From assembly GCA_025358925.1 (NCBI GenBank), contig JANYHT010000017.1, forward strand, positions 180,432 through 244,431: a stretch of DNA of 64,000 nt. Direction: 5' to 3'. The position numbers were made by a program, and so were the translations under genes. The notes below the pieces were generated by a model. That model did no database searches, was not told the origin of the DNA, and saw nothing but the letters and a program-made list of their open reading frames with translations. Shown here piece by piece: positions 1 through 9,112 of this stretch. This DNA comes from Gemmatimonadaceae bacterium. Lineage in GTDB: Bacteria; Gemmatimonadota; Gemmatimonadetes; Gemmatimonadales; Gemmatimonadaceae. The first letter of the stretch is position 1. Every line of letters begins with the position of its first letter.

Positions 1-1614
1 CGCTATGCGAATTCGTGTGGCGACGTCTGCCGCGCTGCGGGCTGGCGATTGTGCTGCAGCGCCAACGAGTTGTTCGGCGAGTTGCGCTTTGTGCGTCAGT
101 CGATCCGAAAGTTTGAGAATGTGTGCGCTGCCCGTGGGTGGTCCGAGTTGGTACACGTGCACGACCTCGTGCAGCGACCCAATGCGCGCACAGCGTCCGA
201 CGCGTTGTTGACGCAGAGCATCGGTCCACGGGAGATCGCAGTGCAATACGATGCCTGCGTCTTGCAGATTGACGCCTTCGGCGAGGAGATCGGTGGTGAT
301 GAGGAGTGTGATGGCCTGATGCGGAGGGGGCGGGGGGCGACCTTGGGCGACAGGTGCGAAGTTGGCGAGTGCGTGCTGTCGAGAGATGGGTCCACTGGCG
401 ATGCGCGCTTGCGTGCCCGTGAGTGACCCAACGCCAGCGATGTCGGCAAGTGCGCGATGGAGTGCGTGAACGGTTTGTGCGAACTGAGAGAACGCGACGA
501 TTGGCACGTTCGGGTGCTGCGCTCGTATGTCGCGAATGGCCTGGGCGCGAATGACATCGCCGCGCGCGGTACGGCGATGGTGTTCGTCGAGCGCACGCAG
601 TGCAGCGAGGTGTTTCTCGAGGATTTCCAGCAGCGCGCCACTCTCTGTTTCGTGGCTCGCGAGTAACTCCGGAAACGCCAACTGCACTTCGTGGTCGCCG
701 ACCAGCCAACTGCGCAGTTCTGCGTGTGTTGGGTGTCGACCGGCGAGTAGTGCTTGTCGTAATGCTTCGCCGCGCGCCACTCGTTTTCGTACAGCGTGCG
801 TGAGCGCGGCGTCGCTTGAGCACCAGGTACGCAACAGTCCGAGTCTGATCAGCGCGCCGCTCACGGCACCGTCGTGCGCGGGCAGCGGGGCCGGAAGCGC
901 AAGAATAGCACTCAATGTGGCATGATCATGTGGGACATCATGCGGGGCGTGCGTACACACGCGCGGTCGTGATGCGTGAGGCGACGATTGTGTCCGTCGC
1001 ACGATGAGTTGTGCGAGTCGGTGTGGCGAGAGTAGATCTTCGCGTCCGCCGGCGAATAGTGCGAGCAGATGACGCAGCTCGCGCGCGTCGTTGTGCAACG
1101 GTGTAGCGCTCAACAGCAGGACATCGTGATCAGCGACAAACTGGGCGACTGCGGCGTAGCGTTTGGTTGCGCAGGTGCGGAGGTGATGTGCTTCGTCGAC
1201 AATCACGAAGTCATCCCCGTACAATGCGCGTGTGCTGATGGGTGGTAGTGCCGAAGAGAACGCGTGTAACGAGTGTAGTTGCACGTGTGTGCAGGCGGCA
1301 CGCGCAATGGCGTGTCGCCACATGGGCAGCAGCGCAGCAGGCGCAATCACATGTGCGGTGCGACGTTCGGCCGCGAGGGCGAGCGCGACGTAGGTTTTGC
1401 CGAGTCCGACGTCGTCGGCGAGGAGTGCGCCGTGGAATGTTTTAATGATGGAGCGTAAGCGTACGACGGCGTCTGCCTGGTGTGGGAGCAGTGTGACGTC
1501 GCCGACGATATGTGGCGCTGTTGGTGGGACAATGGCGTGTGCGATGTGTGCCTGAACGATGCTGGCTGGCGTGTTGGTGTAGTCGTGCGATGCACGCGTG
1601 TGGGAATGCGTCAT
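1..1614 (-). CDS. SNF2-family (SF2) helicase, 3' end off the window edge
   Basis: Hand translation gives an uninterrupted frame from ATG at 1614 (ATGA overlap with the MTase stop) to position 1. Motifs: GALLADDVGLGKTY (I), VIVDEAHH (II), LLLSATP (III), VAFSQF (IV), TTDLLAEGVNLQ (V), QRVGRCARIG (VI). Absent from the ORF track because no stop lies inside the window. Confidence 0.92.
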   Translation of the reverse strand, partial: MTHSHTRASHDYTNTPASIVQAHIAHAIVPPTAPHIVGDVTLLPHQADAVVRLRSIIKTFHGALLADDVGLGKTYVALALAAERRTAHVIAPAALLPMWRHAIARAACTHVQLHSLHAFSSALPPISTRALYGDDFVIVDEAHHLRTCATKRYAAVAQFVADHDVLLLSATPLHNDARELRHLLALFAGGREDLLSPHRLAQLIVRRTQSSPHASRPRVCTHAPHDVPHDHATLSAILALPAPLPAHDGAVSGALIRLGLLRTWCSSDAALTHAVRKRVARGEALRQALLAGRHPTHAELRSWLVGDHEVQLAFPELLASHETESGALLEILEKHLAALRALDEHHRRTARGDVIRAQAIRDIRAQHPNVPIVAFSQFAQTVHALHRALADIAGVGSLTGTQARIASGPISRQHALANFAPVAQGRPPPPPHQAITLLITTDLLAEGVNLQDAGIVLHCDLPWTDALRQQRVGRCARIGSLHEVVHVYQLGPPTGSAHILKLSDRLTHKAQLAEQLVGAAAQSPARSAADVATRIRIA

Positions 1615-4600
1615 CGGATATTCCAGTCGAGGAGCGGTTGCATTGACGCGACGGAAACGCCGTATGCGTCGGCGGTGGCGCTGATGTGGTCGTCGGTGGA
1701 GAGCGTGTGGCCGCTTGCGGTATACCGACTGATGTCGGCGAGTGCAATTCGCGCGGTGGTCCAATTCGGTGGGAGCGGCAGTGCGGCAACGGTCCAGCCC
1801 AAGAATCTTCGGAAGCCGCCGCGTGCGGGTTCGGCGATTGCGTTGAGCCAAGCGGCGACCAACGGCGATTCGAGTAGCGTGTGCAATGCGAGTGCGTCGT
1901 CGAGTGCGGGGGTGCGCATGACGTAGCAGCTGTTGAGCGGCACCGTGGGGTCGCCAGCGGCGAGCACGCGCGTGCGCAATTGTTTGCCGATGTCCGCCCA
2001 AACGAGTCGGGGTGCTTCGGCGTGTGCTGCGTCTGTACGAAAGAGCGACCACCATGGTGTGGATGTACGTGCGTCGCGTCGTGCGTCGAGGCGTGAACGC
2101 CAGTGCGCAAGCCAGCGTGCCGCGTGTGGTGGTAGCGCACGCAGCGGAGCGCCGTTGCTGTCGTGTGTCCAAATAATTCTGAGATCGCCGGCGTTTTTGT
2201 GCGGCGTGTTTTGTGCGTCGAGCGAGTGAATAGCTTCGCCGCGGAGTGCGGGTCGCAGCATGTGTCGTTCGATGAGTGCTGCGCGTGCGTCGGCGGTGAT
2301 GGTGGCGAGTTCGTCATCGTGTTCGGTGGCGTGCACGAGAAACGCGGCATTACACCCACATTTGGTGCCGAGTTGGGGGCGACCCAGGGGGGAGTCGCCG
2401 AGTGGTGGCGCGGTGCGTCGGAGTTTTTCGAAGGCTGTGCGGACGTGTGGTGGGAGGAGGATCCACGGTGCGGCGGGGTCGTTGTCGAGGGTGAGATGGT
2501 GTGCGGGGAGCGCGAATGTGTGTGTCGTTGTGTGTCGCGCGATGGCGACGTGGATGTGTGGAATGGGTGTGGGCGTCGCCGCGCCTGTTCGAAGTGTTCG
2601 TAGTGTTCGTTGTGCGACGATGAGTGACGGGTAAGTGGCCGCGTTGAAGAGTGCGGGTGCGTCGGACCAATCGCGGATGGTGTGGATGCGTGTCTGTTCG
2701 ACGAGGAGCTTTCGAATGCCGCCGCCGGCGAGTGCGCGCCAGAGTTTGGCGGGGACGAGCAGTGCGAGTGTGCCGTTCGGTGCGAGCAGTTGTGTGCTGC
2801 GTTCGACGAATGCGACGGCGAGGTCGGCTTGTGCGGCGAATCCTGCACTGGCGCCAGCGCGTTTTGCGCCGGCGGACCATGCGGCGAGTCGCATGGACGT
2901 GAAGGTGCGTTTGAGGAGTTGTCGTTCGCTGAGTGGAAGGGCGTGCGGGCGCACCCAGGGTGGGTTGCCGATGATGAGATGGAAGCCGGAGAGTGCGGCG
3001 ACGTCGGCGAAGTGGGCGGCGAATCGAAACGGGAGGGCGGCGCCGAGTTGGAGGTGGTGGCGTTGTCGGGTGAGTTGGTGGGTGCGTGTGCGGAGGTCGG
3101 TGAGTTGTGTGGTGTCGTTGCGTGTGCGGATGCGTCGATCGCCGAAGAGGTCGCGGGTGCGCAGTGATTCGATGAGGGCGGCGCGTTCGTGTGAGACCGC
3201 GTGGAGTTGTCGTGTGGTGTCGGCGATGGCGCGGTTGCGTTCTTCTTTGTGGAGGGCGCTGTCGAGTGTGGTTTTGCGGCGGCCGGTGGCGCGGGTGTAG
3301 CGGTCGCGCAGTTTGGTGAGTGTGCGTGCGCTGGGTGGAGCGAATGTGAAGTCGCCGCCGGCGAGTGAATCGCCGATGCGGATGTGGTGATCGAGATTGG
3401 GGAGTGGTGTGATGTGTGCAGCGCGTGTTTCTGGGCATTCGATGACGACGGAGAGCCAGAGTCGCAGTTCGCAGAGCCAGACGGCGATTGGGTTGCGGTC
3501 GACGCCGAAGATGGAGCGTGTGAGGGTGTCGCGTCTGATGACGTCGATGGCGCGTGGATCACCGCTGCGGGCGAGGAGGTTGGCGATGCATTCGAGCATG
3601 TGGACGAGGAATGCGCCGGATCCGCAGGCGGGGTCGAGGATGCGAAGGTTGGTGAGGGTGTTGCGTGTGTCGGGTGTGAGGTGGAGTGGTGTGTTGGGTT
3701 GTTCGAGTGCGTGTGGTGGGAGGTCGACGAGTGCTGAATGCAGTGCGTCTTTGACGACTTGGTCGACGAGCATTGGTGGTGTGTAGAACGAGCCGGTGCG
3801 ATGGCGTTCGGCGGCGTTCATGAGGCATTCGAAGGCGCGGCCCAGCATTTCTGGGTCGACGGCGGCTTCGGACCATGTGGTGGAGTCTTCGTGTGCGGTG
3901 AAGCGGTAGCGATCGAGGACATCGCCGATGAGAGCCGTGAGTGCGTCGTCGGTGAAGCGGAGGGTGCGGAGTTTTTGTTCGAGTGGTGTTGGTGCGAAGA
4001 GTCCGCCGTTGAGGAATGGGATGTCGCCGAAGGTGCGGGCGGCTGGTGCGCGTTGGCGGAGTGGGGTGTTGAGGGTGCCGAAGAAGAGTGGTTTGAGGAA
4101 GCGTTGGTGGAGGTGTCCGCCGGCTTCGAGTTGGTGAGCGGTTTGTTTGAGGAGGAAGTCGCGGTCGCCATTCAACCAACCTTTTGCCTGGAGGAAGGCG
4201 AGGAACAGGCAGCGTGATGCGCAGAGGAGGGCGATTTCGTGGCGTTCTTGTTTTGTTGCGGTGCCGGTGGCGGTGTTGGCGAGTGTGGTGACGGCGCGTT
4301 CGAGTGCGCGATAGAAGCGTGTGGAGAGGGCGTCTCTGCGGAGTATGTCGGTGAAGCGTGCGTGGCGAAGGTGATCGTTTGGTTCGGTGATGGTGGCGAG
4401 TGCGCGGAGTGTTTCGGCGTCGGAGTTGACGACGTGGTGTCGGTCGATGCGGAGGGCGGCGATGCGTGGGCCGTGTGGGGCGGGTGTGACGGTGGCGATG
4501 GTGAGGGTGTGGGTGTGATGATCGAGGGTGAGGGTGCACCAGTGTCGTGTTGGGGCGTGGTGTGCGAGGGTGGTGCAGAGTCGGCGGGTGAGTTCGCGTG

Positions 4601-4841
4601 CGTCGATGGTGGTGCAGCTGTTGGCGTGTGGTGTGAGTGTGGCGCAGAGGAGACGCATGGCGCCGGGACCGCGCGTGATGGTGGCGTTGGCGACGAGTGT
4701 GGCGATGCCGATGGTGCGGCTGGCGTGTGGTGTGACGGGGATCGGCGTGCTGAGGAAGCCGAGTGTGTGCGCGATGGGTTGGAGCGCGCGGAGGGAGTCG
4801 GCTTGGGTGAGCAGGTTGGCGGCGGCGCGGAGAGTGAGCAC
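1611..4841 (-). CDS. Large N6-adenine DNA methyltransferase (Eco57I/type IIG-like, TaqI-like C-terminal region)
   Basis: 1076 aa. DPEMLGRAFE and TGSFYTP (motif X region), ILDPACGSGAFL (motif I, SAM binding), IIGNPPWVR (motif IV). No clear PD-(D/E)xK nuclease motif seen in the N-terminus. Confidence 0.9.
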   Translation of the reverse strand: MLTLRAAANLLTQADSLRALQPIAHTLGFLSTPIPVTPHASRTIGIATLVANATITRGPGAMRLLCATLTPHANSCTTIDARELTRRLCTTLAHHAPTRHWCTLTLDHHTHTLTIATVTPAPHGPRIAALRIDRHHVVNSDAETLRALATITEPNDHLRHARFTDILRRDALSTRFYRALERAVTTLANTATGTATKQERHEIALLCASRCLFLAFLQAKGWLNGDRDFLLKQTAHQLEAGGHLHQRFLKPLFFGTLNTPLRQRAPAARTFGDIPFLNGGLFAPTPLEQKLRTLRFTDDALTALIGDVLDRYRFTAHEDSTTWSEAAVDPEMLGRAFECLMNAAERHRTGSFYTPPMLVDQVVKDALHSALVDLPPHALEQPNTPLHLTPDTRNTLTNLRILDPACGSGAFLVHMLECIANLLARSGDPRAIDVIRRDTLTRSIFGVDRNPIAVWLCELRLWLSVVIECPETRAAHITPLPNLDHHIRIGDSLAGGDFTFAPPSARTLTKLRDRYTRATGRRKTTLDSALHKEERNRAIADTTRQLHAVSHERAALIESLRTRDLFGDRRIRTRNDTTQLTDLRTRTHQLTRQRHHLQLGAALPFRFAAHFADVAALSGFHLIIGNPPWVRPHALPLSERQLLKRTFTSMRLAAWSAGAKRAGASAGFAAQADLAVAFVERSTQLLAPNGTLALLVPAKLWRALAGGGIRKLLVEQTRIHTIRDWSDAPALFNAATYPSLIVAQRTLRTLRTGAATPTPIPHIHVAIARHTTTHTFALPAHHLTLDNDPAAPWILLPPHVRTAFEKLRRTAPPLGDSPLGRPQLGTKCGCNAAFLVHATEHDDELATITADARAALIERHMLRPALRGEAIHSLDAQNTPHKNAGDLRIIWTHDSNGAPLRALPPHAARWLAHWRSRLDARRDARTSTPWWSLFRTDAAHAEAPRLVWADIGKQLRTRVLAAGDPTVPLNSCYVMRTPALDDALALHTLLESPLVAAWLNAIAEPARGGFRRFLGWTVAALPLPPNWTTARIALADISRYTASGHTLSTDDHISATADAYGVSVASMQPLLDWNIR

Positions 4842-4920
4842 GCGTGATGATGTGGTGTGTGCGGGCGTGGTCCGTCACCGAAGTGTTTGGGGTGGTGCCT
4901 TTTTACTGCAGGGACTAGGA

Positions 4921-4941
4921 AATAGGGAATAGGGAATAGGG
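4921..4941. repeat. Heptamer tandem repeat (AATAGGG)x3 with degenerate flanks
   Basis: aataggg aataggg aataggg read directly, about 80 bp upstream of the MTase start. Confidence 0.85.
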
Positions 4942-5314
4942 ATTAGCATTGTGTTGCGGTGTGGTGCGCTGGTCGGCAATTGGCCATCATTGGTCATCAT
5001 TACTCGGATGCGTGCGTCTCATTTCGGTTTCCGGTGCGCGCGCAAACGTTTGTCGAGCTCGGTGGAGGATGGAACTACGTTGCATCCGCTAGTTCCGCCG
5101 TTCGCTACAGCGCAGGCTCCAACATTCGTTCGCAACCGTGTGCGTCCTCCGGCTGCTCAGGGCCCGGCTACTCCAGTCTCCCGGCCATGCAGAACCGGTG
5201 GCAATGCCAAGCCAGTGCCTGTGCATGGGCTGGAAACCGCCTGCTCTGAGATTTTTAATAACGACATGACGGATCGGAACCTGTCAATGAAAATGAGACG
5301 AATGGGTTGAAAGT

Positions 5315-6556
5315 TTAGCGAGTAGCTCCGATGTACGCGGTCTGATCTTCGGCTTTGTTGATCCAGACTTCTGTGGGCAGTTGCGGGACGCGCGGTGGCC
5401 CGTTCACGAAGCGTTCGGGGTGCTGCTGATACGCGAGATCCATCGTCCGCTGTCGTTGGGCAAGGATGGTGGGCGCCTGTCCGTCATGCACGGTAGCGGG
5501 CGTGAGCCAGGCAATCCCTTCGTGTTTGTGCTCGTGGTTGTAGTGTTGAAAGACGGGACCACACCACGCGTTGGCGTGCGTGTAGCCGTCGAAGCGGTCG
5601 GGATACGTGGGAGCGTACTTGGTGGTTTTGAAGAGCGATTCCGAATACGGATTGTCGTTGCTGACGCGCGGGCGCGACAGCGAGCGCACGATCCCGAGGG
5701 TCTGATACAAATCGTGCAAATCTTTGGCGACTTGAATGCTGCCGCGATCCGAGTGCGTGGTGAGTTGATCACGGACGATGCCTTGGCGCGCGCACGCCGT
5801 GCGAATGAGGCGTTGCGCGAGCGTCGCCGATTCGTGGCGCGCCAGCATCCACGCGACGACATAGCGACTGAAGAGATCGAGTACGACATACAGTTTGTAG
5901 CGCTCGCCTTTGACCGGACCTTTGAGGTCGGTCACATCCCACGTCCACACTTGATTCGGTTGCGTGGCGACCAGACGCGGCACGGCGTACGGTGGGTGCG
6001 TGCGCTGTCGGCGCCGCGCGCGGACTTCGTGCGCGCTGGCCAGCCATCGGTAGAGCGTCCGCACACTGCACACGTACGTCCCTTCATCGAGCAGCGTCGC
6101 GTGCACCTGCGCGGGCGCACGATCGACAAAGCGGGGATCGCGCAAGTACGCCAGCACCTGCTCTTGTGCGGCCGGTGATAACGCGCGTGGTGACGGCGTG
6201 CGCACGACCATCGCGCCGTCGCGCTCGCGCGCTCGCGCTGGTGGTTTGCTCCATCGATACGCACTGGCCCGCGGCATGCCGAGCGCCGCACTCACGCGCG
6301 CCACGCCGAGCGTCTCGCCGTGCTGCTGCAAGGTTTCCGTCACGTGGGTTTTCCACTCGGCTCGCGACGTGGTCGCTCCAGCAGCACCGAGAGTTTTTTT
6401 TGGATGGAGATCAGTAACTCGGCGCGCGCGAGGTGGTCGCGCAGTTGCGCGTTCTCGCGTTGCACGCGTGCTAACTCGCTGGTATCGGCCTTCGGCTTGG
6501 GGCCACGTCGTTGCGCCAACGCGTGGCGCGCCCCCGCGTGATACTGCTTGCGCCAC
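5315..6556 (-). CDS. IS3-family transposase OrfB (rve/DDE), probably expressed as an OrfAB fusion
   Basis: PNQVWTWDVT, VVLDLFSRYVVAW, HSDRGS, SNDNPYSESLFKTTKY. The listed start is upstream of the frameshift site and is probably not used. Confidence 0.92.
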   Translation of the reverse strand: MAQAVSRGGAPRVGATTWPQAEGRYQRVSTRATRERATARPPRARRVTDLHPKKTLGAAGATTSRAEWKTHVTETLQQHGETLGVARVSAALGMPRASAYRWSKPPARARERDGAMVVRTPSPRALSPAAQEQVLAYLRDPRFVDRAPAQVHATLLDEGTYVCSVRTLYRWLASAHEVRARRRQRTHPPYAVPRLVATQPNQVWTWDVTDLKGPVKGERYKLYVVLDLFSRYVVAWMLARHESATLAQRLIRTACARQGIVRDQLTTHSDRGSIQVAKDLHDLYQTLGIVRSLSRPRVSNDNPYSESLFKTTKYAPTYPDRFDGYTHANAWCGPVFQHYNHEHKHEGIAWLTPATVHDGQAPTILAQRQRTMDLAYQQHPERFVNGPPRVPQLPTEVWINKAEDQTAYIGATR

Positions 6557-6738
6557 ATCGTTAACTGCGACGAGAACAAGCCTTCGCGTCGCAACAGACT
6601 GCCGATCTCACCCGCGGCGCGACACTGCGCGGCTTCCTGCACAATGCGCGTCTTGTACTCGACCGTGAAGCGGCGCCGCCGTCCGCTGGCGGGCACTGCT
6701 ACATCATCTTTCTCTGCCTTCCGGGATGGATTGGTCAT
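6340..6738 (-). CDS. IS3-family transposase OrfA (HTH)
   Basis: RRRFTVEYKTRIV...LLRREGLFSSQLTMWRKQY followed by a coiled coil, typical of IS3 OrfA. Confidence 0.9.
   Translation of the reverse strand: MTNPSRKAEKDDVAVPASGRRRRFTVEYKTRIVQEAAQCRAAGEIGSLLRREGLFSSQLTMWRKQYHAGARHALAQRRGPKPKADTSELARVQRENAQLRDHLARAELLISIQKKLSVLLERPRREPSGKPT
6394..6401 (-). promoter_or_regulatory. -1 programmed frameshift slippery site (A8) joining OrfA and OrfB
   Basis: Minus strand ATC CAA AAA AAA CTC in the OrfA frame. OrfB (CAT CCA AAA AAA ACT) is in the -1 frame. This is the established IS3 mechanism. Confidence 0.8.
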
Positions 6739-6811
6739 GCGGGTCGACCTCCTGCGCCCCCTGAGTGCCTCACTAATTATGCGAGGAGAATCGTCTCACA
6801 CCATATTGGCA

Positions 6812-9112
6812 GGGGGGGGCCAAGCCGACGGTCGAACGGAAAAACGTTTGTGGTGCGAGTTCAACGACATAGCGCAAGACCAAATCGGCACCACGTGTTT
6901 TCGTGTCGATTGCATTCGTAAAGTAGCGCGGTCGAATATCACCAATCACGTCGAAGTTCTGCGCCGGAAATGCGCGTACGGTTGCACCAACAAAATTCTC
7001 CGAGAGGACGATGCGATCTTTAATCGCAATGTCGAAGCAGTCAAACGTGGCCGAAAACCCAGGCATCGGCGCCCACGTCGCATCCGCACTGAAATTACGA
7101 GATTTTTCGGCCTGCAGAGGCTTGGCACCGAGGGCTCTGGCGATGGCGCTGTTGACGGGATAGGTCGCGACTTCGTTCGGTGTGGGCACGCCATTGACCG
7201 TCAGCACGTTGCTGGCGGTTGATGAGTATACGGACTGCGCAAGCGACGGTGCGCTAAATCCGGTGCTGCCCGCGGTGCGGAGCGAGAAACCGACGAGCAA
7301 TTGATAGCGCGCTGCCGCCTTCCCGATGGTTGCCGAACCGAAGTCACTGAAATGTTCAGCGCGACCTGCGAGGTCGAGCGAAAACGCATGCGTGAGGTTG
7401 GCTTCGATATCCACATAGCCCGCAGCCGACGTGCGCGACGTGTTCGTTTCATCTGTTGGCTTGAATCCATAAAACAATTGCGAACCAGGAGTGGCCGGTC
7501 TCCCGATACTTGGTCCGTCAAGTATGGCTACGCCACCATTCGTATATGACTCAACTTGTCCGCGCGTGATTTGATAGTCGTCGAGACGTGCTTCCGCACC
7601 GAATGCCACATTGATTGGCGTAGAAAGCCCCACCGAAACGGGACGTGCGATGTCGAGGTTGGTGGTGAGTTGCGATGAGTTGAGTTTGCCAGCGTAAAAG
7701 TCGCGCAAGCTATTCACGCCGTATGTAGGATTGTTCGTGTTACCGATATCAAAGCGAAAATTGTTGTTGCCATACGCAGCACTCAGATCGTAACTCCAGC
7801 CAACGGTTTTTCCCTTTACGCCGATGGCGGCACTGATGTCGTTGACCGTGCCGTCAATGTTGGGCAGAAAACCAGTTGGATACCGTGCGCGCACTACAAC
7901 GGGTTCACCGGGTCGGCGATTGAACCCCCACGAACGACCGACGCGATGCGTTGCTCCACCAAAGGCATAGAATTCGACGCCGCGTGCAGTGGTGGTGCCA
8001 ATGTTGAAGAATCCACCGGCGTCGCGCAGCTTCGCGTCGCCATACCATGACGCATTCCGTGTGGCGTTGAGCACGTCCGCCGTGATGCGTTGTCCGCCAA
8101 CGACCACATTCAATCCGGCGGTCATGCTGTCATCCTACGCTTTCGAGAAGTACTGCACGCGCGTATCCGTCTCTGATCGATTGGTCCGCGCACGATCGCG
8201 ATATTCGCCGCACAGCGTGATGTAGCCGCGGTCGCCGAGTGCATGACTCCAGCTCCCGCCGAGCTCTTTGACTTGTCCGTCGCCACGCGACGTCTCTCCG
8301 AGCGTGCTGGAAACGGTGAGTGGCGCATTTTGCTTGAGAATGATGTTGACTACGTCTGCGATGGCGTCGGATCCATACTGTGCCGCTGCACCGTCGCGTA
8401 GCACTTCGATACGATCAATCGCGGCCGACGGAATCGCATTCAAATCGACACCAGTGGAGCCGCGTCCCACGGAATTATTGACCGCGACAACGGCGCCCGC
8501 ATGTCGACGTTTGCCGTTGACTAGGACAAGTGCTTGATCGGGACCAAGACCGCGCAGAGTGAATGGCCGTTGCATGTCGACTCCGCCCGCAATGGATGAC
8601 CGCGGAAAATTGAGCGATGGTACAAGCGATTGGAGAATCTGCGTGATCTCCGTGCGACCCGTGAGTTTCATCTCTTCGCTGCTGACGACATCGATAGGCA
8701 CGGGTGCTTCGGTGACCGTGCGCTCGGTCGTGCGACGCGTGCCCGTGACGGACATGGCGGCCAATGACAGTGGCGCTTTCGTGAGCGTGAAGTCCGCCGT
8801 CGCATTTTGTCCGTCGACAACGGTGACGGTTGCGGTTGTCGTCGTGAACCCGATCAACCGCACGGTGAGCGTGGTCGACCCCGCAGGGGTAAGCAGGCGC
8901 TACGTGCCGTCGGCGCGTGTTTGCGTTCCGCGTTGCGTTCCGCGTTGCGTACCCGCGACGAAGACGGTCACTCCTTGAATTGGGCGTGCGGTACCCGCTT
9001 CCACCACGCGGCCACTGATGCCGCTTGCCGATTGCGCCGCGCTTGGTGAAGCGATAGCGATGCTCGCTACGAGTGTTGCGGAGAGAAGCGCGAGCATGGG
9101 TGTACAACGCAT
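6812..9112 (-). pseudogene. TonB-dependent receptor (CarboxypepD_reg + plug + partial barrel), inactivated
   Basis: ORFs 8900-9304, 8135-8863 and 6773-8125 share one frame, broken by in-frame TAGs at 8900-8902 and 8135-8137. Plug motif VDLNAIPSAAIDRIEVLRDGAAAQYGSDAI. C-terminal barrel strands are cut at the IS end. Confidence 0.88.

Follow-up and report, generated by a model that had tools for sequence, protein, structure and literature searches.

The 64,000-nt window analysed here (contig C50, positions 180432-244431) comes from a 4.0-Mb, 72-contig assembly of a Gemmatimonadota bacterium (G000; other G-numbers denote the genomes of relatives), and it opens on a minus-strand operon that lies in a tract of extreme strand skew. 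The first gene encodes an Eco57I/N6_Mtase-type N6-adenine DNA methyltransferase (MTase; 1611-4841, minus strand, 1076 aa, with an NPPW motif). The second encodes an SNF2-family helicase/translocase (1-1614, minus strand), the coding sequence of which extends 684 nt beyond the window start and the ATG of which overlaps the MTase stop codon (ATGA). The skew tract occupies positions 1-4950, with the plus strand rich in G and T and a peak at 2300-4950, and it runs on for ~1.4 kb to the left of the window, to a limit at ~C50:179000. Upstream of the MTase GTG start codon is a leader or promoter region (4842-4935, minus strand) that is colinear with that of the closest relative, G030, and is itself skewed (keto skew -0.30 to -0.36). 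A TTCGGTGAC-like box ~40 nt 5' of the start codon (within 4842-4880) is kept across the genus and may be a promoter or operator element. The locus is closed by an array of CCCTATT-type heptamers (4910-4946, minus strand) and by an unskewed insertion sequence (IS; 5275-6818, minus strand, with an rve-integrase transposase at 5315-6556), which occupies the place of the ancestral upstream flank.

Along the plus strand, GC skew in 500-nt windows rises from ~0.1-0.2 near position 1 to 0.42-0.51 at 3000-5000, where AT skew is -0.2 to -0.36, and past 5000 it drops to ~0. The other 59 kb of the window stay inside +-0.12. The genome-wide maxima for windows of 1, 3 and 5 kb all fall in this tract, with a top value of 0.466 per kb against a 99.9th percentile of 0.286 for the whole genome, and the tract is the most strand-skewed stretch of the 4.0-Mb genome. 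In G000 and G030 it begins ~100-200 nt or less 5' of the MTase start codon, peaks in the first 2.5 kb and then declines across the helicase gene, in which the skew is weaker than in the MTase gene (GC skew -0.15), and the HAD gene that follows. In the complete genome G183 the tract is flat, forming a plateau from about -750 to +5500 that ends near the end of the helicase-HAD unit.

Over its whole length of 3.2 kb the MTase gene has a GC skew of -0.38 and an AT skew of +0.22 on the coding strand. At third codon positions the values reach -0.74 for GC3 skew (mean 0.02, s.d. 0.13) and +0.58 for AT3 skew (mean -0.12, s.d. 0.13), both extreme among 3041 long open reading frames (ORFs). Codons ending in C or A account for 86-91% over the first three quarters of the gene; GAA is used for 33 of the 33 Glu codons, AAA for 94% of Lys and CAA for 92% of Gln. 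Four-fold degenerate sites are composed of C.63, A.24, G.09 and T.04, compared with C.32, G.37, A.15 and T.155 genome-wide. At these sites G and T are depleted by approximately equal factors, and A and C are likewise enriched; a single ~7.5x multiplier favouring A/C over G/T reproduces the codon families of Ala, Pro, Thr, Arg and Ser. The bias acts at the level of nucleotides: codon positions 1 and 2 are also shifted, as is the upstream non-coding DNA.

The protein has changed with the DNA. Relative to the genome mean, the MTase is enriched in His (2.4x), Thr (1.6x) and Pro (1.3x) and depleted in Val, Gly, Met and Tyr; low-skew orthologs contain 2.6% His and 5.6% Thr, compared with 5.2% and 10.5% here, and have more Val, Gly and Arg. 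Replacements in conserved columns are mainly of G-to-A types (R>H 5:0, D>N 5:0, V>I 5:0 and R>K 4:0). The catalytic motifs of the MTase are intact, and dN/dS values of 0.11-0.19 for both proteins against the closest relative indicate purifying selection; function has been retained. Because T and G are depleted, the minus strand also carries long stop-free shadow ORFs in other sense frames (span 1442-4878), of 706 aa at 1442-3562, 362 aa at 2350-3438 and 439 aa at 3559-4878; the two other sense frames of the MTase gene contain just 2 and 3 stops in 3.2 kb. The original prediction, which was made from the letters of the window, had described most of this picture accurately. Its base counts (27 G and 8 C at 4081-4140, 32 G and 6 C at 4501-4560, plus strand) are exact on recount. 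It had placed the strongest skew near 3400-4900, within the measured peak at 2300-4950, and the weakening towards position 1 and the lack of skew beyond the IS agree with it. The 5' codons of the MTase, its His/Thr/Pro-rich composition and the shadow ORFs are borne out, the remodelling of the proteins by the skew holds in the comparison with low-skew orthologs, and the comparison with the genome-wide distribution that it had proposed as a check places the tract at the extreme.

The MTase-helicase pair is present in 57 of the 61 relatives sampled over three families. Of 150 genomes in its own family, 134 have it (a tally that takes in one unpublished genome, G067, which enters no other result). 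Genes for a NUDIX protein, an LD-carboxypeptidase, a class IV aminotransferase and the chromate transporter ChrA lie upstream, and a HAD hydrolase gene and two DUF4097 genes lie downstream of the MTase and SNF2 genes; this gene order is kept in the genus and, in part, in the taxonomic order. G000 is colinear with G030 at 87% nucleotide identity from 94 nt 5' of the MTase start through 8.6 kb downstream. The MTase gene tree clusters the sampled genomes by family and genus label, and the tract recurs in many independent assemblies, single-contig genomes among them. Judged from these comparisons, the operon is vertically inherited and the skew arose in place. The original prediction had raised acquisition from a strongly skewed replicon and, as a matter of read coverage, chimerism. 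Fixed synteny and the colinearity with G030 exclude both: the first is further refuted by the label-matching gene tree and the graded skew of the orthologs, and the second by the recurrence of the tract in independent assemblies. A patchy distribution, a variable context and a gene tree against taxonomy, by which a horizontal island would be recognized, are all absent. A GC content slightly higher than the window mean (63% versus 58%), the IS and a rearrangement breakpoint at the 5' edge of the tract, and a partial copy that adjoins an ArdC-like gene on contig C20 would suit a foreign or artefactual origin, but with the operon at the same genomic site family-wide and its downstream flank syntenic, we regard the probability of such an origin as negligible.

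Skew is graded among the orthologs. GC skew is -0.00 to -0.06 in families f2 and f3 and -0.04 to -0.38 within the genus, and third-position keto skew (k3) spans -0.02 to -0.69 within this family. One clade on the MTase tree holds G000 (-0.69), G030 (-0.57), G183 (-0.58) and G024 (-0.50). G036 (-0.49) and G029 (-0.34) have as their next relative G005, at -0.09. G182, which belongs to another genus and is nested among unskewed sisters, reaches -0.46, and G084 is mildly skewed at -0.29. No ortholog on the tree has a k3 above +0.05. Graded values with one sign thus identify the skew as labile, recurrent and unidirectional, and on this tree at least three or four lineages have strengthened it independently, with its sign constant. 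In G182, two co-oriented genes 4-5 kb past the helicase (L080, C43:16726-18473) have a k3 of -0.26 to -0.28 and are separated from the helicase by less skewed genes.

The genes that diverge from the operon help to distinguish a process acting on the DNA strand from one acting on the transcript. In G182 the gene 5' of the MTase is a divergent S9 peptidase (Pfam) with a k3 of +0.29 in its own sense, which is the same DNA-strand polarity as that of the MTase, whereas 15 background genes on the same contig range from -0.10 to +0.09. The divergent chrA reaches ~+0.5 over its first 600 nt in G183 and G024. Taken together, these observations point to a process acting on the DNA strand, more than to mRNA selection or to coupling with the operon's sense transcription. 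Codon usage of highly expressed genes was also considered and rejected: the ribosomal-protein/EF-Tu cluster, which is highly expressed, has a third-position bias opposite to that of the MTase, so the skew is not high-expression codon usage, and the other mild outlier ORFs are a miscellany.

Selection could nevertheless act on the transcript if the mRNA were kept A+C-rich, whether to remain unstructured, to serve as a Rho substrate or to escape G/U-dependent RNases; in the Rho variant, a strong Rho substrate would keep expression coupled to translation, and the skew would be an adaptive property of the RNA. Such selection would account for the restriction to one operon, for the constant sign relative to the transcript and its recurrence in separate lineages, and for the G183 plateau, which stops near the end of the helicase-HAD unit. 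The genes are under purifying selection, and keto/amino changes separating G000 from G030 occur at roughly half the flux found in the flanks, as a fixation bias of S ~2 would produce. Against this, the polarity in G182 runs on through the divergent peptidase gene and makes its mRNA G/U-rich, and chrA does the same at its 5' end in G183 and G024. Close relatives that all retain the operon range in k3 from ~0 to -0.69, no known function needs such an RNA, and the match with replication polarity described below would be a coincidence. We therefore consider transcript selection improbable.

Antisense transcription along the plus strand, through the helicase, the MTase and the divergent gene, would instead expose the plus strand to deamination as the non-template strand, and its G-rich RNA would favour R-loops that reinforce the effect. 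The observed polarity is the canonical non-transcribed-strand bias, as at third positions of the ribosomal cluster, and the tract continues into the divergent gene, where the antisense direction is the sense direction. However, in G000 and G030 the skew peaks where such a transcript would finish and then falls steeply, which reverses the decay expected from a promoter, and its magnitude is far above that in the most highly expressed genes. The plus strand of the tract has one consensus sigma-70-like match (1196-1225), no more than shuffled sequence, and a scan of the tract for promoters and terminators found nothing over chance level. Antisense transcription is, in our judgement, just as improbable as transcript selection.

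The substitution spectrum was obtained by parsimony, with diverged outgroups, from sites conserved in ten genus outgroups, counting the changes on the stem of G000 and G030. On the coding strand, G-to-A changes outnumber A-to-G changes by 45 to 4, C-to-A changes outnumber their reverse by 29 to 5 and G-to-C changes outnumber theirs by 18 to 10, with 18 C-to-T versus 10 T-to-C changes. Single-strand damage of the mitochondrial type would give mainly C-to-T and A-to-G on the exposed strand; of their coding-strand counterparts, G-to-A dominates here and T-to-C is modest, and transversions are common. Read on the plus strand, the spectrum consists of C-to-T and G-to-T, the changes classically left by lesions in exposed DNA, plus C-to-G. 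At tract sites that distinguish G000 from G030, the A/C state is mostly in G000, which is further along.

The polarity of the tract is that of replication. In the complete genome G183, GC skew is negative before dnaA (1.2 Mb), positive after it, and changes sign again near 3 Mb, and the operon lies at 5.085 Mb on the plus strand, and therefore on the C-rich lagging strand. The operon is also on the lagging strand in G031 and G046, which belong to another family (from 200 kb of flanking sequence each), in the complete genome G101 (from the position of dnaA) and in G000, where the signal is weak and the replication skew of the genome is very weak. In every genome for which placement could be judged, it is head-on to replication, and the plus strand of the window is the lagging-strand template. 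The GC3 component of background replication skew is 0.1 or less, compared with 0.74 at third positions of the tract, over 6-9 kb. The local skew has the sign of replication skew and is 10-30 times stronger.

The explanation we favour, with somewhat less than even confidence, is strand-specific mutation pressure on, or chronic damage to, the lagging-strand template within a region that has the head-on operon at its centre. A vertically inherited MTase-SNF2 operon, head-on to the forks, would undergo a strong, DNA-strand-specific substitution bias in place, by which the lagging-strand template (the plus strand of the window) loses C and A and gains G and T; on the coding strand this would be read as G-to-A, T-to-C and G-to-C changes. 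The ordinary polarity of replication skew would be amplified 10-30 fold over the 6-9 kb centred on the MTase because the plus strand is single-stranded unusually often or for unusually long here and so suffers deamination and oxidation; the likely reason would be a slowing of forks, caused either by the head-on operon or by a factor bound at the site. The lagging-strand template is an established preferred target of cytosine deamination at forks (PMC7672425; also Bhagwat et al. 2016, as cited in PMC7451550). We infer both the exposure of the plus strand as a single strand and the reason why it would be local; the local amplification is without precedent, and no published mechanism explains an operon-sized skew. 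It is doubtful, in our view, that replication is chronically disturbed at the operon as a natural, heritable property of the site, with the lagging-strand template exposed by forks that meet the operon head-on or by a complex that its own products form on nearby DNA. If this were true, a strand asymmetry of mitochondrial grade would have been written into a bacterial chromosome over evolutionary time, with proteins recoded; local skew tracts would be fossil maps of fork pausing; and a mechanism would be on offer for single-copy skews resembling the published elements named GRINS.

Several results weigh against lagging-strand exposure as the cause. In reporter and mutation-accumulation studies of E. 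coli and B. subtilis, head-on transcription gave no rise in base substitutions in coding regions (PMC7451550, PMC8510543). Orthologs in other families are head-on too, yet unskewed, so head-on orientation alone is insufficient. The chrA evidence is weakened by the low-skew G005, which has a similar chrA pattern, and by the wide variation among G183 genes. GTA, CTA and GGA codons are rarer in the MTase gene than a pure nucleotide model predicts, and the A+C/G+T ratio is ~2 in the upstream non-coding DNA versus ~6.6 at four-fold sites. Four-fold divergence between G000 and G030 is 0.13-0.20 in the tract versus 0.28-0.35 in the flanks, which counts against hypermutation because hypermutation at equilibrium predicts more divergence, not less. 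The halved keto/amino flux, which comes from a two-state model, fits a fixation-type bias (S ~2) or a younger coalescence better than stationary hypermutation. No raised substitution rate is seen in the tract between G000 and G030, and local hypermutation in the form of raised divergence was rejected; rate and coalescence time are inseparable in this analysis. The original prediction had proposed deamination on a persistently single-stranded strand. That proposal is supported in part, short of proof: the polarity, the 45-to-4 excess of G-to-A and the skew in the divergent gene agree with it, and the missing rise in rate does not.

Two further candidates were set aside. The first was a G-quadruplex barrier formed at the tract edge by the heptamer arrays, (CCCTAAT)n: 85 arrays genome-wide have no general skew after allowing for gene direction, other skewed relatives have no array at the locus, and the density of G-quadruplex motifs is modestly raised, as G-richness alone predicts. 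The array at 4910-4946 is not the cause of the skew. The second was the use of a truncated copy of the MTase gene on contig C20 as a neutral control, in which lineage-specific changes were few and balanced (3 keto-to-amino versus 8 reverse on C50, 5 versus 6 on C20); the unpolarised comparison with G030 in the same analysis gave 21:1.

The C20 copy itself (C20:2214-2582, L011) matches the first ~117 codons of the MTase at 91% nucleotide identity. It adjoins the ancestral upstream flank (class IV aminotransferase and LD-carboxypeptidase genes) together with the ArdC-like ORF; on C50, where the operon is complete, the IS has taken the place of that flank. The arrangement on the two contigs reflects either a rearrangement with partial duplication or a strain mixture in the metagenome-assembled genome; 200 nt of skewed DNA past the break in homology on C20 had no match anywhere. 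The heptamer arrays (CCCTAAT, CCCTATT or CCCTAAC, telomere-like, 3-11 units) look like a family of dispersed repeats, as yet without a name, that belongs to this genome. There are at least 85, mostly intergenic, many in inverted pairs 40-80 bp apart and several at contig ends; examples besides the one in the window are C50:179049-179076, C1:92374-92450 and C18:96176-96224. To the left of the window (C50:178392-179738; L009:10392-11738), a HAD hydrolase and an ECF sigma factor form one 448-aa ORF, unlike in relatives, which carry the HAD gene as a separate ORF of ~220 aa. Beyond the IS, a TonB-dependent receptor (6773-8863) is split, probably by a stop or frameshift, into two adjacent ORFs, Plug (8135-8863) and beta-barrel (6773-8125). 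Second in strength among the skew tracts of the genome is C7:4500-6700 (plus-strand GC skew -0.36, AT skew +0.32), which spans two minus-strand genes, for a Crp/Fnr regulator and an MBL-fold hydrolase. One edge adjoins tyrosine-recombinase fragments; relative to its sharp edge this tract has the same polarity as the operon tract, and its gene direction is opposite.

Strand skew in bacteria is usually seen as a slight side effect of replication that extends over the whole chromosome. A single conserved operon has here evolved a third-position skew of -0.74, in place and repeatedly, changing protein composition with function kept. Neighbouring genes that share a strand can therefore be subject to mutation pressure, or to some selective force, differing by an order of magnitude. 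This bears on models of codon usage, on the detection of horizontal gene transfer by composition, on gene finders, which meet long shadow ORFs, and on attempts to infer gene inversions from skew. For the GRINS phenomenon the operon offers a simpler case, single-copy and phylogenetically resolved, with a series of orthologs that runs from unskewed to extreme and includes complete genomes.

GRINS are the closest published phenomenon. Their GC and TA skews, of kilobase scale, are intense and positively correlated and recode bacterial genes with function kept, by an unknown mechanism; they occur across phyla, are frequent in genes for replication, recombination and repair, and single-copy skewed regions are mentioned alongside them (PMC8256042). 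They are defined as duplicated segments of >500 bp with >80% identity, and the sign of their skew often flips within 1 kb (PMC8256042). The MTase gene exceeds their intensity threshold (mean GC and TA skew magnitudes >0.15 over >500 bp) with a GC skew of -0.38 and an AT skew of +0.22 over 3.2 kb, and AT skew tracks GC skew along the tract, window by window. The sole other copy of the tract in the genome is the one on C20, 370 nt at 91% on another contig, so that a duplicate of at least 500 bp is lacking, and one polarity holds over 6 kb in all orthologs. A GRINS-type process, perhaps tied to recombination or gene conversion with error-prone synthesis, would suit the recoded protein, the fact that the copied 370 nt are the most skewed, and the mosaic identity profile between G000 and G030. 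The fixed syntenic operon to which the tract is anchored, the graded orthologs and the agreement with replication polarity are unreported for GRINS, and we consider a process of this type unlikely.

Among better-understood asymmetries, the heavy-strand asymmetry of vertebrate mitochondrial DNA is similar in size to that of the tract at four-fold sites, and both have an A+C-rich coding strand; the gradient along the G000 tract and the inferred G-to-A excess on the coding strand add to the likeness. Mitochondrial DNA depletes G more than T, whereas both are depleted by an equal factor in the tract, which is a chromosomal bacterial locus with prominent G-to-C and C-to-A transversions and, in G183, a plateau rather than a gradient. 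Transcription-associated strand asymmetry, which in E. coli consists of C-to-T changes on the non-transcribed strand, is likewise of operon scale with an onset near the promoter. Its sign is opposite, given that here the coding strand loses G and T, and the tract enters a divergent gene. Replication-associated skew, with G>C and T>A on the leading strand, shares with the tract both its polarity, G/T-rich on the lagging-strand template, and the proposed chemistry of damage to an exposed template, but it is arm-wide, roughly uniform and small, whereas the tract is confined to 6-9 kb and is 10-30 times larger.

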